Under the pieces are notes generated by a model. That model was not told the DNA's origin. It saw only the letters and a list, made by a program, of their open reading frames with translations, and did no database searches. From Patescibacteria group bacterium (lineage in GTDB: Bacteria > Patescibacteriota > Minisyncoccia > Phycocordibacterales > DATDWN01): a stretch of 64,000 nucleotides of DNA. The position numbers were made by a program, and so were the translations under genes. The stretch spans positions 178,737-242,736 of the forward strand of contig JAZKAN010000001.1 of assembly GCA_040389125.1 (NCBI GenBank), read 5' to 3'. How positions within the stretch are numbered: the first letter of the stretch is position 1; each line of letters begins with the position of its first letter. This document shows, piece by piece, positions 2,339-55,730 of the stretch.

Positions 2339-3652
2339 TTATCGTATTTTTCTACGAAGTTTCTTGTGATATCCTATCGCAAATCTGTGAGCCTCGGAGT
2401 TTGAAAGTAAAATCTCACGTTCGTACACCAGCCATTTTTTATTACCCAAAATCTCTCGCGGACGATGTCTCTCGTCTTTAACTATCGACACTACTGGAAT
2501 ATCTGCGTGACTCTGACGCAAAACTTTTTCTATCGCATTTTTCTGTGCACTGCCACCATCCACAGCAATCAAACTCGGTAGTGGCCATTCTATATGAGTC
2601 AACCTACGCGAAAGAATTTCGGAAAGTGCCTTGGTGTCATTTACTCCTGGATTATCTTTAATTTTAAACTTTCGATAATCAGATTTTTTTATTTCACCAT
2701 CCTCGACAACTGTCATCACCCCCACCACATTTGTTCCCGAGAGGTGTGCGATATCGTAACTCTCAATACGAAATACGCCCTGTTTCAATTCATTATCAGC
2801 AGCTATGAATAAATCTTTTTTTATTAAAGAAATATCCTGAATGTGTGTCAATGCAAATAACGTTCTTTTTATTTTTTGAGCATCTTCAAATCTCTTTCCT
2901 TTTGCGAGATGATTCATTTCTTTTGTGAGATTTTTAATAAGTATCCCCTTTTTACCCTCAAAAAATAAAACAATATTTTTGATTTGCTGTGAATATTCTT
3001 CCTTGCTAATTTTCCCTGTACATACTCCAGGACAAAGTCCTATCTGACTATTGAAGCATGGCTTTCCTTGCATTGGTTCACATTTATCTCGATACGGAAA
3101 AAGCTTACGTATAATTTTTAACGCTTCTTTGAGTTGACTTCCGTTTGGAAAAGGACCAAAGGATTGTTTAATTCTCACTTCACTCATTGGAACTTTTTGA
3201 ATTTCATTCTCCCATGCCTTACCTTTTTGGAGTGGCGATGTCTCACCTGCATGCAAAAGTTCCCTTCCTCGGATCACTAATATTCGTGGGAAATCCTCAT
3301 CAGTAATTACCACAAAATTAAAACTTTTATTATCTTTCTCTTTAATATTAGCTATTGGCTGATGTTTTTTTATGAGGTATGCCTCGAGTATGAGCGCCTC
3401 GAGTACAGAGTCAGTTTGTTCAAATGTAATATCATCAAACTCTGAAAGCATTTTAACAATAAGTGGCCCGCGAGTAGTGGCAATGTCTGACGCAAAATAG
3501 CTTCGTACACGATCACAGAGTGACGTCGCCTTGCCTATGTAGAGAATCTCACTTCCCTCTCTCCCTTTTTCTCCTTTTCCACGTCGAAAGAAATACACAC
3601 CTGGTGCATCCGGAAATTGTTTTATTTTGTCGAGAGCTTCTTGACGAGTCAT
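2339..3652 (-). CDS. uvrC: excinuclease ABC subunit C, short form lacking C-terminal (HhH)2
   Basis: GIY-YIG N-terminus (GVYFF...ILYIGKA), UVR domain, RNase-H-like endonuclease domain (IESYDIAHLSG...IAVDGG). Start at MTRQEALDKI. Confidence 0.85.
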   Translation of the reverse strand: MTRQEALDKIKQFPDAPGVYFFRRGKGEKGREGSEILYIGKATSLCDRVRSYFASDIATTRGPLIVKMLSEFDDITFEQTDSVLEALILEAYLIKKHQPIANIKEKDNKSFNFVVITDEDFPRILVIRGRELLHAGETSPLQKGKAWENEIQKVPMSEVRIKQSFGPFPNGSQLKEALKIIRKLFPYRDKCEPMQGKPCFNSQIGLCPGVCTGKISKEEYSQQIKNIVLFFEGKKGILIKNLTKEMNHLAKGKRFEDAQKIKRTLFALTHIQDISLIKKDLFIAADNELKQGVFRIESYDIAHLSGTNVVGVMTVVEDGEIKKSDYRKFKIKDNPGVNDTKALSEILSRRLTHIEWPLPSLIAVDGGSAQKNAIEKVLRQSHADIPVVSIVKDERHRPREILGNKKWLVYEREILLSNSEAHRFAIGYHKKLRRKIR

Positions 3653-4163
3653 GGTAAGTATGATATCAAATAGTGAGGAGAAAGTACATATGAACAACAC
3701 GATACAGGAAGTACAGCAAGCTGCTCTGAAATTGAAAGGGCTTCAGGCTGAGAACCGCCTTTATAAGGCAGGTAAGCCGAAAGAATTGACCACCCTTGCT
3801 TACGCTCTCATAGGCATGCTGGCGGGAAACTTCGCTTGCTACGGGAGTGTGGGAAATGAATCCAGCCGCTCCGAAATCGAAGAATTCATTGCTGAGGCAG
3901 TCGAATTCGCCGGGACTTTCGAGGACAAATCCACACCACTTTCCAGCATAACTTTGAGTATGTTAGAAGAGATATTCGTGGACGCGATGACTGCCAACCC
4001 CTCGATTCCAAAGATCAGGATAACCGAACCAACCTTGCGAGCCTTACACACACTCGGGGTGAAACTCATTAATGTTCCAACTATGGCAGCACATCATTTG
4101 ACAGAGGCGAAAATCGGCGGAGTTACGCTTCAATGTAAGAGCTCGAAGCCTTTAAAGTTCTGA
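3651..4163 (+). CDS. hypothetical protein
   Basis: 170-aa ORF (alternative start MNNTIQEV at 3690). No recognisable domain. Divergently overlaps the uvrC start and is followed by a clean terminator. Confidence 0.5.
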   Translation: MVSMISNSEEKVHMNNTIQEVQQAALKLKGLQAENRLYKAGKPKELTTLAYALIGMLAGNFACYGSVGNESSRSEIEEFIAEAVEFAGTFEDKSTPLSSITLSMLEEIFVDAMTANPSIPKIRITEPTLRALHTLGVKLINVPTMAAHHLTEAKIGGVTLQCKSSKPLKF

Positions 4164-4176
4164 CGCGAACCTTCCC

Positions 4177-4212
4177 ATGCCACGGCGTCTCAGCGCGCCG
4201 TGGCATTTTCCT
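4177..4212 (+). terminator. intrinsic terminator
   Basis: Stem atgccacggcg / cgccgtggcat, 8-nt loop, followed by tttcctttt. Confidence 0.7.
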
Positions 4213-4242
4213 TTTCCATCACAATATTTCGAGATTAAAAAT

Positions 4243-4354
4243 CTCCCTACACACATGCTTTTATGGCGCATCACGGACTGCATGAAGACAGGAGTGCGAG
4301 GAAAATTTTCAGCAGAAAATTATTCCGGCGACAGAAAAGTATGTGTGTAGGGAG
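4243..4354 (+). repeat. family-A palindromic element, copy 1
   Basis: Conserved ~75-nt core GCGCATCACGGACTGCATGAAGACAGGAGTGCGAGGAAAATTTTCAGCAGAAAATTATTCCGGCGACAGAAAAG, closed by a 14-22 bp copy-specific inverted repeat (ctccctacacacat / atgtgtgtagggag). Other copies are at 25130 and 55361. Confidence 0.8.
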
Positions 4355-4362
4355 ATTTCAAC

Positions 4363-6999
4363 CTACCCCTTCCTATACGCTTTATACTGTTTCAGCGCCC
4401 GCTTCAAATACTTTCCCGTATACGACTTCTCACTATTTGCAACCTCCTCCGGAGTTCCCTTTGCGACGAGCTGTCCACCACCGCTCCCACCCTCTGGACC
4501 AATATCCAAAATATAATCAGTGGATTTGATCATGTCCATGTTGTGTTCAATAACGAGCACTGTATTTCCTTTATTCACCAATTTCTGCAAAATCTCAATC
4601 AGTTTTTTCACATCTTCGTAGTGAAGTCCGATCGTCGGTTCATCAAGAAGATAAATTGTTTTCTGTAAATGCGGACGATACAACTCTGACGAAATTTTGA
4701 CACGCTGCGCCTCACCACCAGAAAGTGTCGTTGCAGACTGACCAAGCTCGAGATAGCCGAGACCGACGTCATCAAGACATTTGAGGCGGTCGTAAATAGC
4801 AGGAATGTCTTCAAAAAATGTGAGCGCCTCCTCCACTGTCATTTTGAGCACATCATAAATATTTTTCTTTTTGTATGTGACCTCGAGAGTCTCTTTCATA
4901 AACCGCTTGCCCTTGCACACGTCACACGGCACATACACCGTCGGCAAAAAGTGCATTTCAACTTCGATCATGCCATTTCCCTGACACGTCTCACATCGTC
5001 CACCCTTTACGTTGAATGAAAATCGATTTGCCTTCCATCCACGTGCACGAGCCTCGACAGACTCTGCAAATAGGTCACGAATAAAACTCCACGACCCTGT
5101 GTATGTTGCGGGATTCGATCGCGGTGTGCGTCCGATCGGAGACTGGTCAATGAGTATTGCACGACCGAGATACTCTGTGCCAGTAAATGTTTTACAGTTA
5201 TAGATTTCTGCACTGCGATATTTGCGTTCAAAACGTGCCTGAAGGTTTCGGTGCAAAATCTCGTACACAAATGACGACTTGCCTGAGCCAGACACACCAG
5301 TCACTGCTACAAATTTACCGAGCGGTATGTCTACGTTTAGGTTTTTAATATTAAAGATTTTGCCTCCGCGTATTTGCAGGCTTCCCTTTTCACCCTCACG
5401 ACGGTTTTCAGGCAACTCTACTATTTTGTCCCCACGCAAATAGTCGAGCGTGAGAGACTCGGATGTATTTTTCTTGGCTGTAAGTAACTCATCGAGATAC
5501 CCAGAAACAACCACATGTCCACCGTGAACACCGGCGCCTGGACCAATATCAACAATATAGTCTGATGCAAATATTGTGTCCTCATCGTGTTCTACTACAA
5601 TAATAGTATTGCCGAGATTTTTTAAATCAATAAGTGTTTGGATGAGACGATCATTGTCACGTGAATGGAGTCCAATCGTCGGCTCGTCGAGTACATAGAG
5701 TGCTCCTACCAGTCCCGATCCGAGCTGACTTGCGAGACGAATACGCTGAGCCTCCCCACCCGAGAGCGTGTGGGCACGACGGTTGAGCGACAAATATTCG
5801 ATTCCTACGTTTATCATAAATTTGAGTCTCGCTTCGATTTCCCGCATGACTACTTTTGAAATATTGATTTCTCGTTCTGTCAGTTTCAAATTCATAGCAA
5901 AATCGTACGCGTCTTTTATAGACATCGCTGTAAACTCTACTATATTTTGCCCACCGATTGTTACATGAAGTGCCTCCTCGCGTAGTCGTGCGCCGTGACA
6001 TTTTGGACATGGTTCCTTGCCGAAAAAGTGACGAGTACCCAAACCATTACATTCGGGACACGCACCATATGGCGAGTTAAATGAAAACAATCGAGGCTCT
6101 ACCTCGGGATATGAATAGCCGTCCTTTGGACATGAAAGTTTTGAAGACATAAAAAATTCTTCGGGAACATATCCTTTTACAGATTCCTGTGCCATATCAC
6201 GAACAAGTATTTTAACTTGTCCGTCGGATTCCAAAAGCGCCTTTTCTAGATCCTCCGACAGTCTCTCCTCTGCACTTTTACTATCTGTACCAAAATCGAG
6301 AAGTGAAATACTATCCACGAGCACGTCTATCGTGTGTCGTTTTGTTTTTGTCAGTACTATCTGCTCTCGGAGAGATTTTCGCACACCATCTACAAGTACA
6401 TGCGAGTAGCCTTTGCCGAGTAGATCGTAGAGGAGCTGGTAGTATTCACCTTTTCGTCCTTTTACTACTGGTGCAAAAATCTCGACGTAAATAGGAAATG
6501 GGATTACCTTGCTTAATTTTTTGTACTCGACTTGCTTGATAGCGATTTTTTCAAGCACAAAATTTTTAATTTCTTCATTTGAAAGTTTTTTGATTTCATC
6601 TCCACAGATGAGGCAGTGTGGATGCCCAATACGCGAATACATGATACGCATGTAGTCATAGATTTCTGTAATCGTTGCGACAGTTGAGCGTGGGTTGTTT
6701 GAACGTGATTTCTGATCGATTGAAATAGCTGGTGAGAGCCCAGATATTTCGTCCACATCCGGTTTTTGCATTTGACGGAGAAACTGTCGTGCATACGATG
6801 ACAGTGACTCGACATATCGTCGCTGCCCCTCTGCAAAAATCGTATCAAATGCAAGTGATGACTTGCCTGACCCAGACAGACCAGTAAAAACCACCATTTT
6901 ATTTCGTGGTATTTCAACAGTAATATTTTTGAGATTGTGAGTCCTAGCGCCTTTTACGACAATCTGCTCCTGGGAATTTATAGTCTTTTTTGGTGTCAT
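4363..6999 (-). CDS. uvrA: excinuclease ABC subunit A
   Basis: 878 aa with two ABC ATPase modules ([14 protein letters not shown]..., [10 protein letters not shown]) and zinc-finger Cys motifs. Confidence 0.95.
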
Positions 7000-7098: not shown

Positions 7099-9171
7099 TT
7101 ACGCTAACAAATCTTTTGCGTTCTTGGGATTTTTTGACTTCTCAACTTTCGGCACAATATTCATTTTTTCAAGCTCTACAATCTCATCTCGCAGGAGTGC
7201 TGCTGTTTCAAAGTCGAGGATTTTAACAGCACCATCCATTTGTTTTTCTTTCTGCACAATCAACTTTTTCAACTTCTTTGGATCTTTTTTCAGTATATTC
7301 TTGTCTATTGCCAGGAGTTCATCCACCGCCTTGCCATGTTCACTGCGTAACTGATCCGTAATATCCTGAATTTTCTTTATAATTGTTTTTGGAGTGATCC
7401 CGTGTTTTGTATTGTACTCCACTTGTATTGCTCGTCTGCGACTTGTCTCCTCTATCGCCCGTTGCATTGAACCCGTCATGCGATCTGCATACAAAATCAC
7501 TCGGCCATCCACGTTGCGCGCGGCACGTCCTATGATCTGAATGAGAGATGTGTCGGAACGCAAAAATCCTTCTTTGTCTGCGTCGAGAATTCCGATGAGT
7601 GTCACCTCGGGCAAGTCGAGCCCCTCTCGCAGAAGATTCACACCGACGAGTACATCAAACTCGCCACGACGTAGCGAAGTCAAAATTTCAATACGCTGTA
7701 TAGTTTTAATATCACTGTGCAGATACTCTGCACGAATTCCCTTTTCCTTTAGGTATTCACTCAAATCCTCTGCCATCTTTTTGGTCAGTGTCGTTGCAAT
7801 CACACGTCCGCCTTTTTTGACAGCCTTTTCTGTTTCAATAATAAAATCTGTAATCTGTCCAGGAAATTTGCCTTTCTCGACGATTGGCCGCACCTCTACC
7901 ACAGGATCAATAAGGCCAGTTGGACGAATAATCTGCTCAACTATTTGTTCACTGTGTTCACCCTCATACACACCTGGTGTTGCAGATGTGTAAATAACTT
8001 GCCCCACTCGTTCTTCAAATTCTTCGAATTTCAGCGGTCTGTTGTCCTTGCTACTTGGCAGTCTAAATCCAAAATCAACAAGGGATTGTTTACGTGACGC
8101 ATCTCCTGCATACATTGCGCCGATCTGTGATACTGCCACATGCGACTCGTCGATAACCGTCAGAAAATCTGGGTTGCCGTCTGCCTTGTGGGGAAAATAC
8201 GAAAGCAGTGTATCTGGTGCCTCGCCCGCGAGTTTACCAGAAAAATGTCGTGAGTAGTTCTCGATACCATTGCAGTACCCCATCTCGCGAATGAGTGCGA
8301 GGTCGTATGTTGTGCGACGTTTGAGACGCTCTGCCTCGAGAAGTTTTCCATCGCTATCTAGTTCCTTGAGTCTCGCAGTTAGTTCTGCTTTTATTGTTTC
8401 AAACGCTCTCTCACTCTGAGCTTTGGTAGATATAAAATGCTTTGCCGGAAAGAGAAAAAAGACTTCAACGTTTTTTATTATCGCTCGCGTGATTGCATCA
8501 ATAACCAAAACTTCTTTTATTTTGTCACCATCGATTTCGATACGATAAATGACTTTCTCTGAAATCGGCATGATCTCGAGCATGTTTCCAATGGCACGAA
8601 ACTGTCCCGGCGAAAGGTCTGCAGTGGTACGTTCAAAATGAATATCAATAAGTCGTCGAATGAAATCTGCGCGAGAAATTTTCTCACCCACTGCAACTTT
8701 TAAATTCACTTTTTCATACTCAACTGGTGAGCCAAGACCGTAGATACATGAAACAGATGCAACAATAATAACGTCTCGACGTGTGAGAAGTGCCTGTGTG
8801 GATGCATGACGCAAACGATCAATCTCTTCGTTGATCATTGCCTCCTTTTCTATATATGTATCAGAGACTGGCATGTACGCCTCTGGCTGGTAGTAGTCGT
8901 AGTAGGAGACAAAATAATGGACCTCGTTGTTCGGAAAAAACTCTCTGTACTCCTGAGCGAGCTGTGCAGCAAGAGTTTTGTTGTGTGCAATGACGAGTGT
9001 TGGCTTCTGAACTTCCTGAATTACATTTGCAATCGTAAATGTTTTACCAGATCCTGTCACGCCAAGGAGAGTCTGATGTTTCAGACCATTTTTTACACCA
9101 TCTACAAGTTTCTCGATGGCCTGTGGCTGGTCACCTGCAGGCTCAAAATCCCGCTTGATCTCAAATTTCAT
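7099..9171 (-). CDS. uvrB: excinuclease ABC subunit B
   Basis: GVTGSGKTFT helicase motif I, beta-hairpin region and C-terminal UVR domain. Start at MKFEIKRDFEPAG; the ORF to 9291 is over-extended. Confidence 0.95.
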   Translation of the reverse strand: MKFEIKRDFEPAGDQPQAIEKLVDGVKNGLKHQTLLGVTGSGKTFTIANVIQEVQKPTLVIAHNKTLAAQLAQEYREFFPNNEVHYFVSYYDYYQPEAYMPVSDTYIEKEAMINEEIDRLRHASTQALLTRRDVIIVASVSCIYGLGSPVEYEKVNLKVAVGEKISRADFIRRLIDIHFERTTADLSPGQFRAIGNMLEIMPISEKVIYRIEIDGDKIKEVLVIDAITRAIIKNVEVFFLFPAKHFISTKAQSERAFETIKAELTARLKELDSDGKLLEAERLKRRTTYDLALIREMGYCNGIENYSRHFSGKLAGEAPDTLLSYFPHKADGNPDFLTVIDESHVAVSQIGAMYAGDASRKQSLVDFGFRLPSSKDNRPLKFEEFEERVGQVIYTSATPGVYEGEHSEQIVEQIIRPTGLIDPVVEVRPIVEKGKFPGQITDFIIETEKAVKKGGRVIATTLTKKMAEDLSEYLKEKGIRAEYLHSDIKTIQRIEILTSLRRGEFDVLVGVNLLREGLDLPEVTLIGILDADKEGFLRSDTSLIQIIGRAARNVDGRVILYADRMTGSMQRAIEETSRRRAIQVEYNTKHGITPKTIIKKIQDITDQLRSEHGKAVDELLAIDKNILKKDPKKLKKLIVQKEKQMDGAVKILDFETAALLRDEIVELEKMNIVPKVEKSKNPKNAKDLLA

Positions 9172-10641: not shown

Positions 10642-10713
10642 AGCACATTCGACTTGAATTTAAAAAATCTTAAAATCTAGATGGAATTCAAGACAAAATT
10701 AAAAAAATAACCC

Positions 10714-10781
10714 GAGGTGTACTAAATGTACATTGAGGGTTATTTTTTTAATTTTAACGCAGAAATCCGCTAAATTTGGAG
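10714..10781 (+). repeat. GUAC-hairpin element (family B/C), degenerate copy
   Basis: GAGGTGTAC-TAAAT-GTACATTGAGGG, then a T7 tract, then AACGCAGAAATCCG...GGAG. It shares the hairpin, AU tract, AACGCAGA and UCCG...GGAG tail with copies at 16210, 29786, 37828 and 41700. Lies just after the FKBP stop. Confidence 0.65.
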
Positions 10782-10785
10782 ATTT

Positions 10786-11253
10786 TTATTTTTCTACCTT
10801 TAGAAGCTGTACCTCAAAAATAAGTGTTGATCCTCCTGGTATCGGTCCGTAGTCGCTCATACCATATCCCATTTCTGGTGGCACAGAGAGTACTCGTGTA
10901 CCTCCCACCTTCATACCCACAATTCCTTTGTCCCACCCCTCGATCACTTGACCACCACCGAGCGTGAACTTGAGAGGTTCACCTCGAGCAACTGAACTAT
11001 CAAATACTTTGCCATCTACAAAATGTCCGACGTAGTGAACTGTTACGATACTTCCAACTGTGGCTTCATCACCTGTCCCTACTACCCTATCCTGAATTAA
11101 CAGATTTCCGATTGCACTCGTGTTCATTGATGTTTGTTGTGTGTTATTTGGACTAAATATAGAAAGTAAACCAGAACCAAAAATAAAAAAACCTGCAATT
11201 GCACAGAGTGATACTACAACTGCGATCCACTCATTTTTATCTAATTTTTTCAT
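10786..11253 (-). CDS. FKBP-type peptidyl-prolyl cis-trans isomerase, membrane-anchored
   Basis: VTVHYVGHFVDGKVFDSS...LGGGQVIEGWDKGIVGMKVGG FKBP core with an N-terminal TM helix. Confidence 0.85.
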   Translation of the reverse strand: MKKLDKNEWIAVVVSLCAIAGFFIFGSGLLSIFSPNNTQQTSMNTSAIGNLLIQDRVVGTGDEATVGSIVTVHYVGHFVDGKVFDSSVARGEPLKFTLGGGQVIEGWDKGIVGMKVGGTRVLSVPPEMGYGMSDYGPIPGGSTLIFEVQLLKVEK

Positions 11254-15579: not shown

Positions 15580-15594
15580 GAGGGGTAGTATAGC

Positions 15595-15708
15595 ACAAAA
15601 TCCCGTGCATATGTTTTTAAAACACGGCGTCGCTCGGGGCACTCGCGCGCCTCGCTCTCGGGCCGTCGCCCTGCGTACGGTTTTAAAAACATATGCACGG
15701 GATTTTGT
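15595..15708. repeat. 114-bp palindrome: 29-nt perfect AT-rich arms around a 56-nt GC-rich core
   Basis: Arms acaaaatcccgtgcatatgtttttaaaac / gttttaaaaacatatgcacgggattttgt. The core carries the direct repeat CTCGCTCGGGG...CTCGCTCTCGGG. Confidence 0.9.
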
Positions 15709-15727
15709 AAGTGGTGATTTTAGACAA

Positions 15728-16141: not shown

Positions 16142-16209
16142 TGTCATGATTGAATTCAAGAACTTTCATAATTTCGATGAGATCCGACGTTGAGAATTTG
16201 AAAATTCGA

Positions 16210-16266
16210 GGAGACGTACACGAGTACGTTGACGAGTATTTTTAAATCCGAAACTAGGAGATCGCG
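16210..16266 (+). repeat. GUAC-hairpin element (family B/C) copy
   Basis: GGAGACGTACAC-GA-GTACGTTGACGAGTATTTTTAAATCCGAAACTAGGAGATCGCG, immediately after the DEAD-box helicase stop. Nearly identical to the 37828 copy. Confidence 0.8.
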
Positions 16267-16278
16267 AAATTTGGAAGT

Positions 16279-20447: not shown

Positions 20448-20487
20448 TAAATGAAATATATTTGGGGTATCGGTGTACTATATACAT

Positions 20488-22275
20488 ATGAAAACATACT
20501 TTTCGGAAAGATTGCCACGACTTAAAAATTATGTCATTGCGCACAAAATTCTGGCTAGCACAACTATTATTGCAGTTTTACTTGTTGGATATTGGGGAGT
20601 AAAGAAAGTACATGGTTCTACAAACGAGGTGCGATACATAGTGACCACCGTCAAAAAAGGAACTGTAGTTTCAACAGTCAGCGCAAGTGGACAAGTGTCA
20701 GCTACCAACAAAGTAGATGTCAAAGCAAAAGTTTCTGGAAACATCACATGGGTAGGAGCAACTGTGGGGCAGAGAGTGTATGCGGGACAGGGGTTAGCAT
20801 CTATTGATAACAAAAATGCAAAAGCAGCTCTTGCAGACGCACAGGCATCGCTTGCGCAAGCAAAACTTCAATTCCAAAAAGATCAGGCGACTGCACCGAT
20901 AAACTATCAAAAGTCTGTTGATGATGTAACAAATGCAAAAAACGATTTAGATACTGAATACAACGACACATTTAATAATCTTTCAAATACATATCTCGAT
21001 ATCCCACCGGTAGTAACCAGCATGCAGAATATTTTATACGGGTACGACCTCAGCCCAACATCCAGTCAGTGGAATTTGGATGTACTCAAAAATATGTTTA
21101 GTAGTAAAGATGAGGCACAAAAGATACTCAATTTTGCAAACATAGCAGAGAGTGACTACAAAACTGCTCGCACAAAATATGATGCTGCGTTACTTGTATA
21201 CAAACAAATGAGTAGATTTTCTGATCCTACTCAAATGGAAGATTTACTTGCAAAATCTATAGACATGCTCACTGCGGTTGCCCAAACACTACAAAGTGAG
21301 AGCAATTTTCTAAGTTCAATAACAGATACAGCGAGTCTATATAATGTGCGATTGTCGAGTACTATTTCTACAATGCAAACAAATACTCGAAGTAACATTT
21401 CTACAACAAACAATAGTTTGAGTACTCTTTTGTCACAGAAAAAATCACTCGAAACAAGTAAGCAGACAATAAAAACTGGTGAGCAAAATTTGGAACTTTT
21501 AAAAATTGGAGATTCATCTGGCAACAATCCGATCAGTTTACAAATATCAGAAAACAACATTGAAAAACAAGAACGGAATCTACAAGATTTACAAACAGCA
21601 CTGTACGATTATACAGTAGTCGCACCATTTGACGGAACAGTCGCAGCTGTCACTGCAAAAGTGGGTGATACGAGTGGTACGATTGCGACGATTATTACTG
21701 ATGGGCAGGTCGCAGAACTGTCACTCAACGAAGTAGATGCATCCAAAGTTAGTCTCAAACAAAAAGCAATTCTCACATTTGATGCAATTGATGATTTGAG
21801 CATGACCGGTACTATTTCTGAAATCGATCCAGTTGGCACAGTCTCCCAAGGTGTAGTGAGTTACACAATCAAGATAACATTTGATACACAGGATCCACGT
21901 ATAAAACCGGGGATGACAGTAAACGCTGCTATTCAAACTGCGGTACATAGTGACGTACTCGTAGTTCCAAGTTCCGCTGTAAAAACAAGTAGAGGAACGA
22001 GTTATGTGCAAGTCTTTACACCTCCCCTTGTCGATACTGGCGGTACAGCTGGAACAATCTCGGGTACACCACCAGAACAAGTTGAAGTGACAACGGGAAT
22101 ATCAGACGGTACAACTATTGAGATTCAGAGTGGCCTAGAGGAGAATGAACAAATAGTTTCGAGAACTATTACCGCAACTACTGTTGCCAAAACTACTAGC
22201 ACAACTCCATCTGCAACTTCCCTTCTCGGCGGCGGTGCTGGAGGGAGAACTGGTAATGTAAATTTTGCACGATAG
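20488..22275 (+). CDS. efflux transporter periplasmic adaptor (HlyD/MFP, MacA-like)
   Basis: N-terminal TM helix, long coiled-coil, and beta-barrel segments (VSGNITWVGATVGQRVYAGQGLASID...). Upstream of an ABC ATPase/permease pair. The start could be 20473. Confidence 0.8.
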   Translation: MKTYFSERLPRLKNYVIAHKILASTTIIAVLLVGYWGVKKVHGSTNEVRYIVTTVKKGTVVSTVSASGQVSATNKVDVKAKVSGNITWVGATVGQRVYAGQGLASIDNKNAKAALADAQASLAQAKLQFQKDQATAPINYQKSVDDVTNAKNDLDTEYNDTFNNLSNTYLDIPPVVTSMQNILYGYDLSPTSSQWNLDVLKNMFSSKDEAQKILNFANIAESDYKTARTKYDAALLVYKQMSRFSDPTQMEDLLAKSIDMLTAVAQTLQSESNFLSSITDTASLYNVRLSSTISTMQTNTRSNISTTNNSLSTLLSQKKSLETSKQTIKTGEQNLELLKIGDSSGNNPISLQISENNIEKQERNLQDLQTALYDYTVVAPFDGTVAAVTAKVGDTSGTIATIITDGQVAELSLNEVDASKVSLKQKAILTFDAIDDLSMTGTISEIDPVGTVSQGVVSYTIKITFDTQDPRIKPGMTVNAAIQTAVHSDVLVVPSSAVKTSRGTSYVQVFTPPLVDTGGTAGTISGTPPEQVEVTTGISDGTTIEIQSGLEENEQIVSRTITATTVAKTTSTTPSATSLLGGGAGGRTGNVNFAR

Positions 22276-22281
22276 TTCCGT

Positions 22282-22983
22282 ATGATTGAAATAAAAAATA
22301 TTACAAAAACATACGGTACAGGAGAGATGGCGTTTCAGGCTCTGAAAAATATTTCTTTTACGATACACGATGGAGAATTTCTTGCAATTATGGGACCATC
22401 GGGGTCAGGCAAATCTACACTCATGCATATACTTGGATGTCTCGATACACCGACATCTGGAACATACCTTTTGGATGGCAAGGATGTCTCCACTTTTTCT
22501 GATGAAAATTTAGCAGATATTCGAAAGGATAAAATTGGTTTTGTGTTTCAATCATTCAATCTCCTCCCTCGCACATCTGTATTACGCAATGTAATGCTTC
22601 CTCTCGTGTATGCTGGTATCGAAGGTGAAGAGAGAGAAACTCGAGCAAAAAACGCTCTCCTCGCAGCAGGAATGCCGGAGAGTCACTACGGACACCGATC
22701 CAATGAAATATCTGGTGGACAGATTCAGCGAGTCGCCATTGCACGTGCTCTCGTCAATAATCCCAGTCTAATCTTGGCAGACGAACCCACTGGAAATTTG
22801 GATACCAAAACTGGAGATATTGTGCTCGGAACATTTGAAAAGCTGAATCGTGAGCAAGGTAGAACAATTGTACTCATTACACACGAACCAGATGTGGCAG
22901 AGCATGCTCGTCGAATAATTTATATAAAAGATGGTGTAATCACAAGTGATAGTACATCACACAAACAAAAATCAATCTCATGA
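22282..22983 (+). CDS. ABC transporter ATP-binding protein (MacB/LolD type)
   Basis: GPSGSGKST Walker A, LSGGQIQR signature, ILADEPTGNLD Walker B. Confidence 0.9.
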   Translation: MIEIKNITKTYGTGEMAFQALKNISFTIHDGEFLAIMGPSGSGKSTLMHILGCLDTPTSGTYLLDGKDVSTFSDENLADIRKDKIGFVFQSFNLLPRTSVLRNVMLPLVYAGIEGEERETRAKNALLAAGMPESHYGHRSNEISGGQIQRVAIARALVNNPSLILADEPTGNLDTKTGDIVLGTFEKLNREQGRTIVLITHEPDVAEHARRIIYIKDGVITSDSTSHKQKSIS

Positions 22984-24212
22984 ATATAAAAGACACTCTC
23001 GAAGAAACATACACGGCACTCTCTGCAAACAAAGTCCGCTCGGGGCTCACTATTCTTGGTATTGTTATTGGAATTTCTTCTGTTATTGCACTGGTTTCAA
23101 TAGGAGCAGGCGCGTCTAGCTCAATCACTAGTCGTATCGAGTCACTCGGTTCAAACCTCATTCTGGTTACTCCCGGTGCGGCACGCAACCAAGGTTTCGG
23201 TGTAAGTACTGGTCGTGGAGCAGCACGGTCACTGACTATGACAGACGTAAATTCGATTGGAACAGGAGTTACGGGAGTTAGGGCTGTGACGGCAGAGGTG
23301 TCAGGTAGATATCAAGTAACTGCCAAAGGTACGAACACAAATACGACTGTCGACGGTGTCACCTCAACATATCCTCAAATCCGAAATCTGGAAATAAGTG
23401 ACGGAGCTTTTATTGATGATACTCAAAATGATAGTATCGCAAAAGTTGCAGTTGTTGGTCCTACTGTGGTCACAGATTTATTTGGTGTAGATGCAATTTC
23501 AAGCGATGCAATCGGCCAAATCATACGTATCAAAGGAATTCAATTTACAATAATCGGTGTAACGGTCGCAAAAGGCGGTACTGGATTTAGTAGCCCAGAT
23601 GATATGATCTATATCCCGATTACAAGTGCACAGCGGTACCTCTCTGGAAATCAATATGTAAATACGATAGATGTTCAAGCTGAAAATCCCAGTGTCATGA
23701 CTCAGGCCCAAGAGGACATTACAAATCTTCTACTTACAAATCATCATATATCAGATCCTGCCCAAGCTGATTTTAGTGCTCTCAATCAAAATGACATTTT
23801 ATCTACAGCCTCGAGTGTTACTGATACGTTGACGTACCTCCTTGGTGCAATAGCTGGAATCTCACTCATTGTTGGTGGTATTGGTATTATGAACATGATG
23901 CTGACGACCGTGACAGAAAGAACGCGAGAAATCGGACTCCGAAAAGCGATCGGGGCAAAGAAAGCCGATATCAGTAAACAATTTCTCATCGAAGCGACAA
24001 TACTCACCTTGATCGGAGGAATTATAGGCATTATTCTCGGGTGGAGTATTTCTTTTATTGTAAATGCAACTGGAATTCTCTCTACAAGTGTTTCACTTTC
24101 ATCTATATTTTTAGCATTCGGAGTATCTGCAATAATTGGGATTGTTTTTGGATACTACCCGGCCCGTCGAGCGTCTCGGCTGAGCCCAATTGAGGCACTC
24201 AGATACGAGTGA
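22980..24212 (+). CDS. ABC transporter permease (FtsX/MacB family)
   Basis: 4-TM FtsX-like topology with a large extracytoplasmic domain. Overlaps the ATPase gene by 4 nt. Confidence 0.85.
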   Translation: MNIKDTLEETYTALSANKVRSGLTILGIVIGISSVIALVSIGAGASSSITSRIESLGSNLILVTPGAARNQGFGVSTGRGAARSLTMTDVNSIGTGVTGVRAVTAEVSGRYQVTAKGTNTNTTVDGVTSTYPQIRNLEISDGAFIDDTQNDSIAKVAVVGPTVVTDLFGVDAISSDAIGQIIRIKGIQFTIIGVTVAKGGTGFSSPDDMIYIPITSAQRYLSGNQYVNTIDVQAENPSVMTQAQEDITNLLLTNHHISDPAQADFSALNQNDILSTASSVTDTLTYLLGAIAGISLIVGGIGIMNMMLTTVTERTREIGLRKAIGAKKADISKQFLIEATILTLIGGIIGIILGWSISFIVNATGILSTSVSLSSIFLAFGVSAIIGIVFGYYPARRASRLSPIEALRYE

Positions 24213-24262
24213 TAAAATCGATCAGTTTTCAAAGTTAATAATTAGTAAATTAAAAAAATAAT

Positions 24263-24688
24263 ATGAATAAAAATACAACAACAATTATAATCGCAATAGT
24301 ACTTATTATCGGGGCTTTTTATGGAGGTATGAGATATGGTCAACACAAAATAGCAACAGGTTTTCGAACAGGAGGAATGCCCGGAGCATTTGCAAATGGA
24401 AATGGCACAAGAACAGGGGCACGGGGAATGCTCGGACAAAATGGTGGACTCGTCAGTGGCGAGATACTGAGTAAAGATGCAACAAGCATCACAGTCAAAA
24501 TGCGAGATGGGGGATCAAAAATAGTGCTTATTTCTGAAACAACTCCTGTGATGAAATCTGCATCTGGCAAAATTTCTGATCTCATAGTTGGTGAGCAAAT
24601 AACAGCAACTGGTACTGCAAATCCCGATGGTAGTATTGTGGCACAATCCGTACAAATTCGACCTGCAACCACAACTCCAGCAAGATAA
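24263..24688 (+). CDS. hypothetical membrane-anchored Gly-rich protein
   Basis: N-terminal TM helix (IIIAIVLIIGAFYGG) and a Gly-rich linker. No known domain. Confidence 0.5.
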   Translation: MNKNTTTIIIAIVLIIGAFYGGMRYGQHKIATGFRTGGMPGAFANGNGTRTGARGMLGQNGGLVSGEILSKDATSITVKMRDGGSKIVLISETTPVMKSASGKISDLIVGEQITATGTANPDGSIVAQSVQIRPATTTPAR

Positions 24689-25085: not shown

Positions 25086-25129
25086 GGGAATAATAAGTTG
25101 AATAATTTAAAATCAAAATTCCTCGAAGA

Positions 25130-25221
25130 CATATGTTTTTCAGCGCATCACGGACTGCGTGTAGACAGGAGTGCGAGGAAAATTTCTAGCAAGAAATTAT
25201 TCCGGCGATGAAAAACATATG
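25130..25221 (+). repeat. family-A palindromic element, copy 2
   Basis: Same core as 4243-4354. The outer stem here is catatgtttttca / tgaaaaacatatg. The internal hairpin shows a compensatory swap (TTTCT-AGCA-AGAAA against TTTTC-AGCA-GAAAA). Confidence 0.8.
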
Positions 25222-25245
25222 TCGAGAAAGAATTTTGATTTTAAA

Positions 25246-26709
25246 TTATTTACTGAGATCAAGTATGTCATCTATACGTATCTGTTTTACAAACTCCGGC
25301 ACGTGACTGACCAATATCATCGCCCCCTCATATTTATCAAGTGCCTCGGCAATTATCGGCAAATGTCGAAAGTTTATATGGTTTGTTGGCTCATCGAGAA
25401 TGAGAAGTCCTGGTTTCTGTAATACAAGTCGTGCAAATGCGACAAGTCCTTTTTGACCCTCTGACAGACTCCCAATTTTTGAATATATTAGTTCGCCAGT
25501 GAGAAGAAATCCAGCTGCAGTTGAACGCAAAGTTTCTTCCACCAATTCGTGCATGACTCCAGCGAGAGAATCGTACACCGTATCCTCGAAATTAAGTGTT
25601 GAGAAATCCTGTCTGTAGTATCCAACCCGAATACCTGGAGCAATAACCGTACCGTCGCTTGTACCGCTCGCGAGGGATTCAAGAAGAGTACTCTTGCCAA
25701 TACCATTTGGACCTGCAAGCAATAAATGCTGTTTTTTTCGAAGTGTTATATTTACCTTGCGTGCCACAGGTTTATGATCCTTTATCATCTTGAATTTGGT
25801 AATGGCCAAAATATCACCATTTATATCTGGCTGTGATGGAATAATAAATGATCGGATCGTTTTATCCTCACGACGGACATCTACTTTTTCCTCTTCGAGT
25901 TCCTCAGCCTTTTCACGCATACGACGTGCCACAAGTCGCATCTGACCACCCTTGTTTGCAAAAAAGTTTGCCTTGTCTTTATTCTCTTGAATTTCCTTTG
26001 CAAGCAACGCATTTTTTCTATTTTCTTTTTCTATACGTGCAGAAATATCTGCTACTACATCAAAATAGTTTCCAACATATTGTTCTACTTTGCGAGTAAA
26101 CACATCCAAATACAACACACCTTGTGTAAAACTATTTAGAAACTCCGCATCATGTGAAATTACAATGCATGTCTTTTTGTAATCCACAAGAAATTTTGTA
26201 AGGTGTTCAATCCCATCTTTGTCAAGATTGTTTGTAGGCTCATCGAGAAGCAACAGGTCTGGATCTTGAATAAGTGCAGATGCAAGGAGAAGCCGCGCTT
26301 GTTGTCCACCAGAAAATGATTTGACGATACGATCGTGTGGAGCATTTAGATTTACCACCTTTAGCACCGCATCTATTCGAGGTTCGATATCATATATTTT
26401 TTTGTCTGTTTTGTTTTTGAAACTGTTTTCAAAATATTCTCGTACAGTCATTTCGAGCTCATTGCGAGGAATCACCTGACGAGCTGTAGCGATGGAGAGA
26501 TGCTGTGCAATATTAATTACACCAGACTCTGGTTTGTGTGTTCCTGTGATAAGACCAAAAAGAGTGCTTTTACCGGCACCATTTTGCCCCATAATTGTGA
26601 ATTTTGCTCCTCGCCGGAGCGTAAAATCAACTTCATCCAAAATTGGTTTTTTGATTCCGAAGTCAAATGAGACTTTATCAAAACTGATTATCGTTTCTCC
26701 CCGTGGCAT
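25246..26709 (-). CDS. ABC-F family ATPase (tandem ABC domains, no TMD)
   Basis: Two Walker A boxes (GQNGAGKST, GPNGIGKST) and two signature motifs with a linker between them. Start at MPRGETI. Confidence 0.9.
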   Translation of the reverse strand: MPRGETIISFDKVSFDFGIKKPILDEVDFTLRRGAKFTIMGQNGAGKSTLFGLITGTHKPESGVINIAQHLSIATARQVIPRNELEMTVREYFENSFKNKTDKKIYDIEPRIDAVLKVVNLNAPHDRIVKSFSGGQQARLLLASALIQDPDLLLLDEPTNNLDKDGIEHLTKFLVDYKKTCIVISHDAEFLNSFTQGVLYLDVFTRKVEQYVGNYFDVVADISARIEKENRKNALLAKEIQENKDKANFFANKGGQMRLVARRMREKAEELEEEKVDVRREDKTIRSFIIPSQPDINGDILAITKFKMIKDHKPVARKVNITLRKKQHLLLAGPNGIGKSTLLESLASGTSDGTVIAPGIRVGYYRQDFSTLNFEDTVYDSLAGVMHELVEETLRSTAAGFLLTGELIYSKIGSLSEGQKGLVAFARLVLQKPGLLILDEPTNHINFRHLPIIAEALDKYEGAMILVSHVPEFVKQIRIDDILDLSK

Positions 26710-29715: not shown

Positions 29716-29785
29716 TTATACCTCACAAATACAACTAAAACGAATCAAATTGCCTCAGATGCTAGGCCTGTAAGATTTTGAGAGT

Positions 29786-29844
29786 GAGCCGTACTTAGTG
29801 GTACGGTGAATGATCAAAATTGAAACACAACAACGCAGATGAGG
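29786..29844 (+). repeat. GUAC-hairpin element (family B/C) copy
   Basis: GAGCCGTAC-TTAGTG-GTACGGTGA...AACGCAGATGAGG, located between the FNR-like stop and the msrA start. Confidence 0.8.
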
Positions 29845-29858
29845 TAATTTTATTCGTT

Positions 29859-31370
29859 TTAGGCAAAACCTGGGAAAAAGTCGATCTTGATATGCTTAAC
29901 TCCCATTTGTTTTAATGTTTTTTCAAACATAGCGACCATACTATGCGGCCCTGATATATAAAATTGTCGTTCTGCAAAATCTGGAATTTCCGCACGTATC
30001 ATGTCTGCAGTAATAAATCCCTTGCGAAATGAGGGCGGAAGTTCACTCGGCACATCGTCAGTAACTGCATATACCGTGCGAATATCGAGCGTCTCCTCTG
30101 CTATATCAAATATATCTTTGTATGCAATATCCTGCATCGTGCGATTTGAATACAGCATGACCACATCACGTTTTTCTTTCATATCAATCATGTATTTGAC
30201 CATGCTACGAAACGGTGTGACTCCGATACCACCTGCAATGAAAACTAGTTTCTGTGTTGTATCATGTGGCAATGTGAAATTTCCGGCGAGTTGTGATGCT
30301 ATGATAGTGCCTCCTGTTGGAATCTGTCCGAGTGCTAGTTTGAAACTACTCGACTGTTCGTAAAATTTGATACCGAGACGAATATCACTTTCTGTCGGGG
30401 ATGATGATAGAGTAAAATATCTACGGTTACCGCGCGTATCCATATTGTCGTGACCAAGTGTCCACTCCATGTATTGTCCAGGTCTATACGGAAAACGTTT
30501 TTCTAATGTAAACACAAATTCATCTGTATCTTTTGCTATTTCCTTTTTATCTTTTAGAGTCAAAATCGTTCTAATCTTTGGGCTGACTATATACGAAAAA
30601 ATATTTCCAAGAATAAGTGCAAGTTGTGGTGTTGAATACACTGATCCAATATGAAACTGGAGTCCAAAAAGTACACCAACAATACCACCATATACCACCT
30701 GTAAATTCAGTGATGGAGGAGTGGTGAGAGGTTCAGTAAGCATGACTGCGCCGAAAAAGACAATTGGTCCTGAGAACAGAATACTATTTAGAATTTCTAA
30801 AACTGGTATTCCGTATGTAAGACCGGTAATAGTAGAAACAATAATCGCTGGGATAAAGAAACTAAAAAAAAGTGTGAATCTGCGAGTTTTGCGAAGTGTG
30901 AGAAGTCCCAACACAGTGACAACTGGAAGCAGAACGCTACTACCAACCCACCATGAAAATCCAGTTACACCAAATATTCCCAGGAGAACAATACTAATCG
31001 CAACAGGATTAAAAATATGTTTCCGGTTAATATTAAAAATATATTTTGAACCCATCGCGAGCACCCCAACAACTATGTATAACAAAATATCCGAGTATGT
31101 AGTGAGTGGTGTCAATATAAAAAACAAAATAATGCCCGTAATCCACTCTGACTCAGCATTGCGTGGCACACCGAGAAATAATGCAAAGAGTTTGTTTGAT
31201 AAGTAACACACTGCGAAAATCAAAACGAGAGAATACAGGAGGTGTAAACCACTAAATGTGAGTATACCAAGAAATCCAAAAACGATTGAAATCAGTGCAA
31301 GAATACAGAGGCTATAGAGAGCAACTCTATACATAGTAATCTTATTTAAAAAGGTATCTATTGGATTCAT
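29859..31370 (-). CDS. polytopic membrane protein fused to an FNR-like FAD/NAD(P)-binding oxidoreductase domain
   Basis: About 8 TM helices in the N-terminus. The C-terminus has RRYFTLSS (RxY[ST] FAD motif) and LVFIAGGIGVTPFRSM (NAD-binding GGxGxxP). No His set for heme. Confidence 0.75.
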   Translation of the reverse strand: MNPIDTFLNKITMYRVALYSLCILALISIVFGFLGILTFSGLHLLYSLVLIFAVCYLSNKLFALFLGVPRNAESEWITGIILFFILTPLTTYSDILLYIVVGVLAMGSKYIFNINRKHIFNPVAISIVLLGIFGVTGFSWWVGSSVLLPVVTVLGLLTLRKTRRFTLFFSFFIPAIIVSTITGLTYGIPVLEILNSILFSGPIVFFGAVMLTEPLTTPPSLNLQVVYGGIVGVLFGLQFHIGSVYSTPQLALILGNIFSYIVSPKIRTILTLKDKKEIAKDTDEFVFTLEKRFPYRPGQYMEWTLGHDNMDTRGNRRYFTLSSSPTESDIRLGIKFYEQSSSFKLALGQIPTGGTIIASQLAGNFTLPHDTTQKLVFIAGGIGVTPFRSMVKYMIDMKEKRDVVMLYSNRTMQDIAYKDIFDIAEETLDIRTVYAVTDDVPSELPPSFRKGFITADMIRAEIPDFAERQFYISGPHSMVAMFEKTLKQMGVKHIKIDFFPGFA

Positions 31371-37747: not shown

Positions 37748-37827
37748 GTTCCATATTAATTAACTTATATTTGTTTTCTAGAACTGACGTAGATGGATGA
37801 AATCCGCGAAGGGAGAGGAAAATAATT

Positions 37828-37885
37828 GGAGACGTACACCGGTACGTTGAGAATTATTTTCTGAATTCCGACAAAGGAGTTCGCC
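37828..37885 (+). repeat. GUAC-hairpin element (family B/C) copy
   Basis: GGAGACGTACAC-CG-GTACGTTGAGAATTATTTTCTGAATTCCGACAAAGGAGTTCGCC. It is flanked by a 20-nt outer inverted repeat (tctagaactgacgtagatgg / ccatctactaagttctag, 37777-37901). Confidence 0.8.
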
Positions 37886-37901
37886 ATCTACTAAGTTCTA
37901 G

Positions 37902-55281: not shown

Positions 55282-55360
55282 GACGTTCTGTATAGTATAA
55301 ATGTTTTTGAAAAAAGTACAAACCACATACACACTTCTGTTGATTTTGAATTCTCTTTCT

Positions 55361-55457
55361 CCCAAAAGCTTTTCTGTCGCCGGAGTAATTTTCTGCTGAA
55401 AATTTTCCTCGCACTCCTGTCTACATGCAGTCCGTGATGCGCCGGAAAAGTTTTTGG
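55361..55457 (-). repeat. family-A palindromic element, copy 3 (inverted orientation)
   Basis: The reverse complement carries the same core, CCGGCGCATCACGGACTGCATGTAGACAGGAGTGCGAGGAAAATTTTCAGCAGAAAATTACTCCGGCGACAGAAAAG. The outer stem is ccaaaaacttttc / gaaaagcttttgg. Confidence 0.8.
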
Positions 55458-55505
55458 TCGACGAGATTTCAAAATCAAAAAAACACCTTGCGGTGTGCTT
55501 TTTGT

Positions 55506-55730
55506 TTATCGTCCTTCTTTTTTTGATTCGGTTTTTTTCGCTTTTCGTGCGATTTTTGCCTGCACGTCGATCACTTGTCGGCCTTTGTATTGACCAGTAA
55601 CAAGCGACGCTCTGTGTCGCAAATGTGGAACGTTTGTGTTTTTGTCCAAAGTAACCGAAGGGTTAGCCAATCCGTCGTGGGATCGTCTGTTGTTTCGGTG
55701 TGCCTTGGTTGATCTCATTCGTACTACCAT
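55506..55730 (-). CDS. rpmF: 50S ribosomal protein L32
   Basis: STKAHRNNRRSHDGL...HLRHRASLVTGQYKGRQVI matches the L32 signature. Confidence 0.85.
   Translation of the reverse strand: MVVRMRSTKAHRNNRRSHDGLANPSVTLDKNTNVPHLRHRASLVTGQYKGRQVIDVQAKIARKAKKTESKKEGR

Follow-up and report, generated by a model that had tools for sequence, protein, structure and literature searches.

Palindromic repeats with a conserved branched apex and a sequence-free stem at gene ends in a Patescibacteria genome

Three copies of a short palindromic element lie scattered over the 64-kb stretch of DNA analysed here (the window; GC content 41.8%), each next to the end of a gene, and in each a conserved core is closed by a helix that seems to be the copy's own. 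Are such elements structured RNAs, small cores that have entered existing palindromes, or palindromic repeats that travel as a whole? An earlier note on this DNA had proposed the first two. We address the question here for these three copies, which we call family A, and for their relatives in the window and in other genomes.

The 16-mer GCGCATCACGGACTGC occurs exactly three times in the window, at 4266 and 25143 on the plus strand and at 55427 on the minus strand; 100 shuffles never gave three matches. When the 64-kb window is scanned without filters with a covariance model built on the core (R1), no further close copy appears, so the three copies reported earlier are indeed present and are the only ones of their kind in the window. 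Their cores align at 4258-4339 (copy 1, plus strand), 25136-25215 (copy 2, plus strand) and 55369-55450 (copy 3, minus strand), with a mean column identity of 93% over 82 nt. Read off the alignment, copies 1 and 3 are about 95% identical, in keeping with the earlier figure of more than 90%; for copy 2, about 88-90% identical to either, that figure was slightly generous. Against a second model (R2), built from five full units, the close copies score 135-152 bits. In addition, an independent short-read assembly of the same organism (Logan SRR26324622) includes half of the copy 2 core together with the flanking sequence of that copy; the contig (L026, positions 1-36) stops inside the core, a break that is typical at repeats. 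Shuffles, model scores and the second assembly together refute chance similarity or an assembly artefact as the source of the three copies, and the odds that remain for either are negligible.

The elements are longer than the roughly 100 nt first assigned to them: model matches and segmentation give a unit of about 120 nt. Copy 1 occupies 120 nt on the plus strand (4239-4358; R1 108.7 bits, R2 135.5 bits), and a scripted segmentation check resolves it into an outer helix AAATCTC/GAGATTT (4239-4245/4352-4358), a stem P1 (4246-4269/4328-4351) and two apical hairpins, P2 (4272-4296) and P3 (4300-4326; GGAAAATTTTC-AGCA-GAAAATT-A-TTCC); it has no bubble between outer helix and stem. Copy 2 covers 122 nt on the plus strand (25115-25236) with a bubble CTCGAA/GAGAAA; its inverted repeat has 46-nt arms that are 87% complementary, and complementarity runs outward to 25101-25250, spanning the stop codon of an ABC-F gene at 25246-25248. 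Copy 3 covers 121 nt (55349-55469), its core sense lying on the minus strand, with a bubble GTCGA/GAGAAA; its palindrome reaches 55335-55483, where it shares sequence with the T-tract of the rpmF terminator. The inverted-repeat arms around copies 1, 2 and 3 measure 31, 46 and 38 nt, respectively, and the fold of each copy is a long hairpin that ends in a three-way junction (z-scores -5.5 to -10, on both strands). The compensatory double substitution noticed earlier in P3 of copy 2 (UC/GA to CU/AG) is real and falls in alignment columns 52/59 and 53/58. The proposal that the whole closing helix is specific to each copy holds in part: pairing is kept throughout, but only the middle 8-12 bp of the stem are copy-specific. 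Only the 7-bp AT-rich termini AAATCTC/GAGATTT and the adjoining bubble are shared, copy 1 being bubble-less, and the remaining arm sequence differs.

The covariance models add four members to the three window copies, one at 15586-15716 of the window, two in GCA_034680565.1 and one in GCA_013816135.1, which brings the known family to seven elements. R1 gives two weak but specific matches in L036, a locus of GCA_034680565.1 whose UvrA is 90% identical to that of the window. Both lie between uvrC and ddl: X1 at 7506-7585 on the minus strand (26 bits) and X2 at 7634-7712 on the plus strand (21 bits). When they are aligned with their flanks to the window copies, the arms prove homologous too. R2 points to two more distant superfamily members, at 15586-15716 of the window on the minus strand (38.7 bits, versus 18.5 on the plus strand) and at 11441-11570 of L031 in GCA_013816135.1 (Y1; 31.9 versus 12.3 bits between orientations). 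Since reverse complements of true copies score 28-47 bits under R2 as mere palindromes, these two members were judged on the difference between orientations and on their alignments; E-values, which come from short model calibrations, are rough. The 15586-15716 element has 29-nt perfect arms (ACAAAATCCCGTGCATATGTTTTTAAAAC) and a GC-rich apex, in which P2 (GGGC-GACG-GCCC, then GA) and P3 follow in the same order as in family A. In the four added members every helix stays paired in spite of different sequences; the conserved pairing that the earlier note had described thus extends to other genomes. In the window, the 373-nt spacer between uvrC and ddl (1966-2338) is free of ORFs and has no Rfam match, even in permissive mode; the same spacer carries X1 and X2 in L036 and an AT-rich palindrome with 26-nt arms in L037.

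A hand segmentation of six elements from three genomes, checked by script, yields one architecture for the element of about 120 nt: an outer helix, an asymmetric bubble, a stem of free sequence and an asymmetric apical three-way junction. The outer helix has 7 bp (AAATCTC/GAGATTT). The bubble sets GTCGA opposite GAGAAA and is missing in copy 1 and Y1. The P1 stem has 18-24 bp of near-perfect pairing. At the apex, P2 has a lower and an upper helix, separated by an internal loop G(G)A/GA, and is capped by a loop; P3 likewise has two helices, lower and upper, with an AG(C/U)A loop and an A bulged on the 3' side; and the junction strand J3/1 is G(U). The bulged A, the AG(C/U)A loop, the GA of the P2 internal loop and the G(U) at J3/1 are unpaired and conserved. 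All six elements have the same module order and every helix paired, in four to five sequence versions (P2a, for instance, reads CAC/GTG, ACTCTC/GAGAGT, AGT/ACT or TTC/GAA). In the five-sequence alignment, 89% of the cells are paired and 17 of the 41 pairs change on both sides, a level reached by none of 500 shuffles; slid controls give 3-7 such pairs. This covariation supports the fold, but a DNA hairpin would give the same signal. A K-turn was considered and rejected by reading, as neither the P2 internal loop (GGA/GA, 3x2) nor the bubble fits the 5x2 k-turn layout.

The modules of the element differ in their histories. Within the window, P2 is 93-96% identical between copies and P3 84-97%, whereas P2 of the window copies is only 41-62% identical to that of X1 and X2; P3 is 81% identical to that of X2. 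P1, at 50-64% in every pair, is the least conserved module and the apex, at 84-97% within the window, the most conserved. The outer module of copy 3 is 92% identical to that of X2, in another genome, but 73% to that of copy 2 and 52% to that of copy 1. Conversely, P2 of copy 3 is 41% identical to that of X2 and 96% to that of copy 1. Copy 3 thus combines arms that match an element of another genome with the core of copies 1 and 2. That copy 3 and X2 have like arms and different cores shows that the arms belong to the element and that modules reassort between copies. The copy-specific closing helix is thus one free module between two conserved ones, with cores and arms re-assorted.

A core that is 88-97% identical beside an unrelated but perfect stem calls for an explanation, since fresh selfish repeats should be similar throughout and old, decaying ones diverged throughout. 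It needs selection on the core, exchange of modules, or a stem that is remade or corrected at the DNA level. Module exchange between elements is directly evident from the comparison of copy 3 with X2. A stem remade or corrected by a DNA mechanism is plausible: a nascent strand that copies itself improves the pairing of a quasipalindrome (PMC7202029), and self-copying could also be the reason why the palindromes of copies 2 and 3 go on for 5-15 bp past the conserved termini. We also considered arms made from native flank. In family A the arms extend into native sequence only in copies 2 and 3, and there by just their outermost 5-8 bp, and the idea was rejected for this family.

It does apply to an unrelated element of the window. 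The palindrome at 29735-29862, between an NAD-binding gene and msrA, has 28-nt arms that are 86% complementary and a GUAC-type apex (CCGTAC-CACTAA-GTACGG). Its gene-proximal arm CTAAAACGAATAAAATTACCTCATCTGC is native sequence, kept in L031 and partly in L028 without a palindrome, and its distal arm looks like an inverted duplication of the flank, rejoined at a TTGT microhomology.

Alternatively, the elements may be multiple copies of a structured non-coding RNA. It could be encoded by a gene of its own or act in cis, for example as a protein-binding site, a processing site or a ribozyme, with P1 as a closing stem that drifts. The earlier note had leaned on this reading, and part of its basis stands: core and structure are conserved, compensatory changes recur in three genomes, and the conserved nucleotides of the bulged A, the AG(C/U)A loop, the P2 GA and J3/1 G(U) are unpaired. 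Within one genome, conservation of the core far exceeds that of the stem, which would require selection if the copies are old. Moreover, the core sense gives the more stable fold in X1, X2 and Y1, by 5-16 kcal/mol; in copy 3 the opposite sense has the advantage, by about 5 kcal/mol. The arms, almost purely Watson-Crick, speak against an RNA: transition mismatches would give G-U pairs in 9 cases in the core (plus) sense and in 13 in the opposite (minus) sense, which shows no strand bias of the RNA type and fits a palindrome kept at the DNA level. Nor do searches for known RNAs support a role as RNA, ribozyme or riboswitch. Rfam 15 returns only a tRNA for the whole window at the gathering threshold, and permissive E-value scans of copy 1, X1 and X2 give only sub-threshold miRNA and snoRNA noise; the elements thus have no known RNA family at either setting.

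Nor do transcription signals point to an RNA gene. Neither a sigma-70-like promoter nor a terminator is common to the copies, only copy 2 having weak consensus matches to a promoter, and a terminator scan finds two neighbouring terminators (4177-4206 and 55483-55496) and none of the elements, whose base is an AU-rich helix. The elements were therefore rejected as intrinsic terminators: they have no short GC-rich stem directly before a U-tract. The conserved asymmetry of the element (bubble, bulged A, GA loops, P2-then-P3 order) does indicate that one strand or orientation matters; RNA, single-stranded DNA and a protein-bound duplex all fit.

Coding potential can be set aside. All three copies do have one frame (AHHGLH.DRSARKI.S.KL.RR) that runs through the core without a stop, but it lacks a conserved start, and all six core frames, searched as a chimeric query against 5.8 billion proteins, returned no homologue; the statement that the core is not coding holds.

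The surroundings of the copies are those of ordinary cellular genes. After an identical NCBI protein, the next relatives of the window's ABC-F protein are Zambryskibacteria/Paceibacteria-like, and the larger window ORFs that were scanned encode housekeeping functions (ddl, tgt, a Pif1-type helicase, ABC exporters, RNase R, SMC, dnaE, thrS and others). Among the proteins scanned with Pfam over the 64 kb, there is no transposase, integrase or HUH/RAYT gene. As noted earlier, each copy adjoins a minus-strand stop codon. Copy 1 and the uvrA stop (4363-4365, minus strand) are 4 nt apart; beyond the opposite end of this copy, the ordinary intrinsic terminator at 4177-4206 (plus strand) belongs to a 170-aa ORF (3651-4163) and is not part of the element. 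The ABC-F stop falls inside an arm of copy 2, and about 20 nt separate the end of this element from ygjP. Between the rpmF stop (55506-55508) and copy 3 stands only that gene's own terminator hairpin (55483-55496, minus strand; ACACC-GCAA-GGTGT, then a T-run); copy 3 is followed by a 326-aa ORF with an N-terminus that, by eye, resembles NusB. The orientation of the copies relative to the flanking genes is mixed, which argues against a structured RNA.

The same sites in relatives bear on how the elements arrived. The ABC-F stop and the ygjP start are 160 nt apart in the window but 4 nt apart in L028 (GCA_040384245.1, of the same clade, ABC-F 93% identical), and they overlap in L033. In both relatives the whole copy 2 unit is absent, arms included, and the junction shows no hairpin or palindrome; with a spacer of 0-4 nt and no palindrome there, the arms of copy 2 must have come together with its core. 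In L031 this junction is taken by Y1, another superfamily member, which faces the genes in the same way as copy 2 does. From the sequences compared, the junction may be either a hot spot of insertion or the site of an old element that was lost twice.

At the site of copy 1, no core follows uvrA in L035, from the genome of the closest relative (UvrA 99% identical); instead, a mini-hairpin AAAATC-AGAAGTACGA-GATTTT stands right after uvrA, followed by other sequence. In this region (L035, 3945-4080) the mini-hairpin combines the outer helix of the family (AAAATC...GATTTT) with an apex containing GTAC, and a GUAC-like hairpin GAAAACAATGTCGGAGTACCTTGTTGTTTTC comes after it. The mini-hairpin could be a footprint or a precursor of the element at the copy 1 site. 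With copy 2 missing from its site in two relatives and no core at the copy 1 site in L035, the conservation at orthologous loci that one would look for in a structured RNA is not seen, and this further weakens that reading.

No direct repeat flanks any unit, as judged against the empty copy 2 site, and the flanks extend the palindrome; there is thus no sign of a target-site duplication. CATATG flanking T/A runs, seen at copy 2 and at 15586-15716, was rejected as such a duplication: the pattern fails in copies 1 and 3 and in Y1, and the motif is more likely part of the element. The oxidoreductase side of ygjP shows another difference between genomes. In the window, about 4.2 kb (20473-24688) encoding an HlyD-like protein, an ABC ATPase, an FtsX permease and a 141-aa protein lie between a gene for an FAD-dependent oxidoreductase and ygjP; the two genes are adjacent in L028 and have one small ORF between them in L031 and L033. 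To judge from gene order, this block beside copy 2 is probably an insertion or a rearrangement.

These sites also bear on the second proposal of the earlier note, that of a small element entering pre-existing palindromes. In this scheme a core of about 80 nt would insert into the loop of an existing hairpin, which would be a native terminator or else an older repeat serving as scaffold, for instance one of the GUAC-hairpin family; it is a sub-variant that overlaps with mobility of the whole unit, and the likelihoods that we attach to the three readings are not meant to sum to one. The genome does offer suitable hairpins, its ordinary terminators being long A-tract/stem/T-tract structures with 16-28-nt arms, and a mini-hairpin with the same outer helix stands after uvrA in L035. 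Core and arms, moreover, differ in history. Against this, the copy 2 junction is hairpin-free in L028 and L033, the rpmF terminator is intact beside copy 3, and the outer helix and bubble, homologous across copies and genomes, hold one fixed orientation relative to the core in copies 2 and 3, X1 and X2. The proposal as originally worded is not supported by these comparisons, and we regard a nested insertion into an older repeat of the same superfamily as unlikely.

GUAC-type hairpins do have an arm module in common with family A, which speaks for such nesting. The GUAC-hairpin family is represented in the window at 16150-16270 and 37780-37890, and the element at 16200-16242 has a right arm, GTTGACGAG-TATTTT, that matches the AAATCTCGTCGAC module of family A and X2 when reverse-complemented. 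Kinship between the two families, which had been suggested earlier, is borne out to this extent only: the shared arm module is a reverse-complement match found by reading, and the R2 match is insignificant (13.6 bits). A further nested palindrome lies at 10663-10787, with outer arms AAAAATCTTAAAATCTAG/CTAAATTTGGAGATTTTT and an inner hairpin with 28-nt arms (AAAAAATAACCC...GTAC-TAAAT-GTAC...GGGTTATTTTTT). A very similar hairpin is found at 15399-15459 of L031, at a non-orthologous site after a DEAD helicase, and the inner hairpin may accordingly be another dispersed repeat.

How widespread is family A? Two exact words of 18 and 20 nt from the invariant part of the core were searched in large collections. 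GACAGGAGTGCGAGGAAA has four matches in 185,579 species genomes, all by chance, and AGACAGGAGTGCGAGGAAAA has one chance match, in a GC-rich gene, in 241 million metagenome records; in viral contigs, a 16-mer and a P3 motif give chance matches only. That core words are missing from such collections argues that the subfamily is young or narrow, and it is a further point against a structured RNA. We found no description of interspersed palindromic repeats in Patescibacteria in the literature. The family is therefore previously undescribed: non-coding hairpin repeats of about 120 nt at gene ends in a small clade of the candidate phyla radiation (CPR), whose members are Paceibacteria/Zambryskibacteria-like.

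Taken together, the observations favour, with a probability of roughly 0.55, the view that family A is a subfamily of a modular, non-coding and non-autonomous palindromic repeat of the MITE or REP type, dependent on structure and confined to a small Patescibacteria clade. For this view we have insertion polymorphism at the copy 2 junction and the missing core at the copy 1 site of L035; three copies in 64 kb, incongruent module identities and near-perfect Watson-Crick arms; a short-read contig break, rare core words, no Rfam family and no shared promoter; and six elements of three genomes with the same module order and helices in different sequences. Counting against it are the lack of a transposase, integrase or HUH/RAYT gene in the window, the lack of target duplication and a membership of only seven. 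The strongly conserved core beside an unrelated stem is likewise unexpected for a purely selfish fresh copy, and the bulged A, GA loops and asymmetric bubble would suit a functional RNA equally well, as would the greater predicted stability of X1, X2 and Y1 in the core sense. The RNA reading nevertheless has to accommodate mixed orientations, a copy that folds better in the wrong sense, and arms nearly without G-U pairs, and it seems to us unlikely.

For a mobile repeat of this kind we may hypothesize the following course. The element would be moved or copied as a folded single strand, its junction and bubble being recognised by an enzyme acting in trans. The arms would be kept complementary by mutual correction through hairpin-templated synthesis, as in quasipalindrome template switching, and by the same self-correction they would sometimes creep outward into native flank. 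In read-through transcripts the hairpin would probably form an incidental stem-loop, at a 3' end or between cistrons.

Known systems offer partial parallels. The attC sites of integrons are imperfect palindromes of 57-141 nt located after stop codons and recognised as folded single strands through bulged bases; they have conserved R''/R' core sites (RYYYAAC/GTTRRRY) at their base, form cassette arrays and depend on the IntI integrase. Family A resembles them in a conserved structure with varying sequence, a variable terminal structure and a place just after a stop codon. It differs in that its base has no RYYYAAC/GTTRRRY, there is no cassette array or IntI, and the flanks are syntenic housekeeping genes. 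TIGR arrays, CRISPR, retrons and attC were all rejected as identities, for the elements are dispersed and have neither partner genes nor defining core sites. Like conventional MITEs, which are below about 300 bp, family A elements are small (120-122 nt) and non-coding, with three close copies and a distant one in 64 kb, and their presence is polymorphic between relatives (the copy 2 junction in L028 and L033, the copy 1 site in L035); unlike them, they have no target-site duplication.

The ERIC or IRU elements of enterobacteria are non-coding imperfect palindromes with conserved terminal inverted repeats. With these and with the Correia repeat-enclosed elements (CREE) of Neisseria (PMC2649163; reviewed in PMC2229807 and PMC10969869), family A shares the form of a non-coding imperfect palindrome of 100-150 nt with many intergenic copies near gene ends, presence that varies between relatives, long hairpins in read-through RNA and the lack of a transposase of its own. 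However, CREE and ERIC are defined by conserved terminal inverted repeats, CREE with a TA duplication, whereas family A has 7-bp termini and no duplication that we could see; its stem varies and its branched, asymmetric apex is most conserved. There is no sequence similarity, and the host is a CPR bacterium.

REP sequences and REPINs are likewise short hairpin repeats, vertically persistent and extragenic beside stop codons; the enzyme presumed to mobilise them in trans, RAYT, is encoded in a single copy and reads a folded single strand (PMC3116915, PMC3337134). In a REPIN, two inverted conserved REPs form the stem and the spacer varies; family A is the reverse, and the window holds no RAYT (Y1 transposase) and no GTAG-type motif that we could see. 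A parallel from very compact genomes is provided by the hairpin elements of sponge mitochondria, small elements of obscure mechanism and divergent families that recurrently invade short spacers and have been likened to those of non-metazoan opisthokonts (PMC2800124). These are organellar and unrelated in sequence, and they are usually simple or double hairpins, with no conserved three-way junction reported.

A more specific version can be put forward, though only as a tentative one that we hold to be improbable: the active part would be the three-way junction with its GA loops, bulged A and bubble, serving either a self-rebuilding, structure-guided CPR element or a structured RNA that has spread in multiple copies to bind protein or process itself. 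In the first case, the element would be copied as a folded single strand and its closing stem rebuilt at each insertion. In either, the free-sequence and perfectly paired stem would be a designed feature and not drift.

CPR genomes are tiny and tightly packed, and repeated mobile DNA is therefore expected to be uncommon in them; the window holds at least eight hairpin elements in 64 kb. Such elements reshape the operon junctions at uvrA, the ABC-F ATPase gene, ygjP, rpmF and the 326-aa gene downstream of rpmF, where spacers in relatives measure 0-4 nt. A practical effect is that they fragment short-read assemblies of these genomes. Family A inverts the usual rule of small bacterial repeats, its tip and base being conserved and its stem free yet perfect, and it thereby provides a natural case for the upkeep and extension of palindromes at the DNA level and for the recognition of structure as opposed to sequence.
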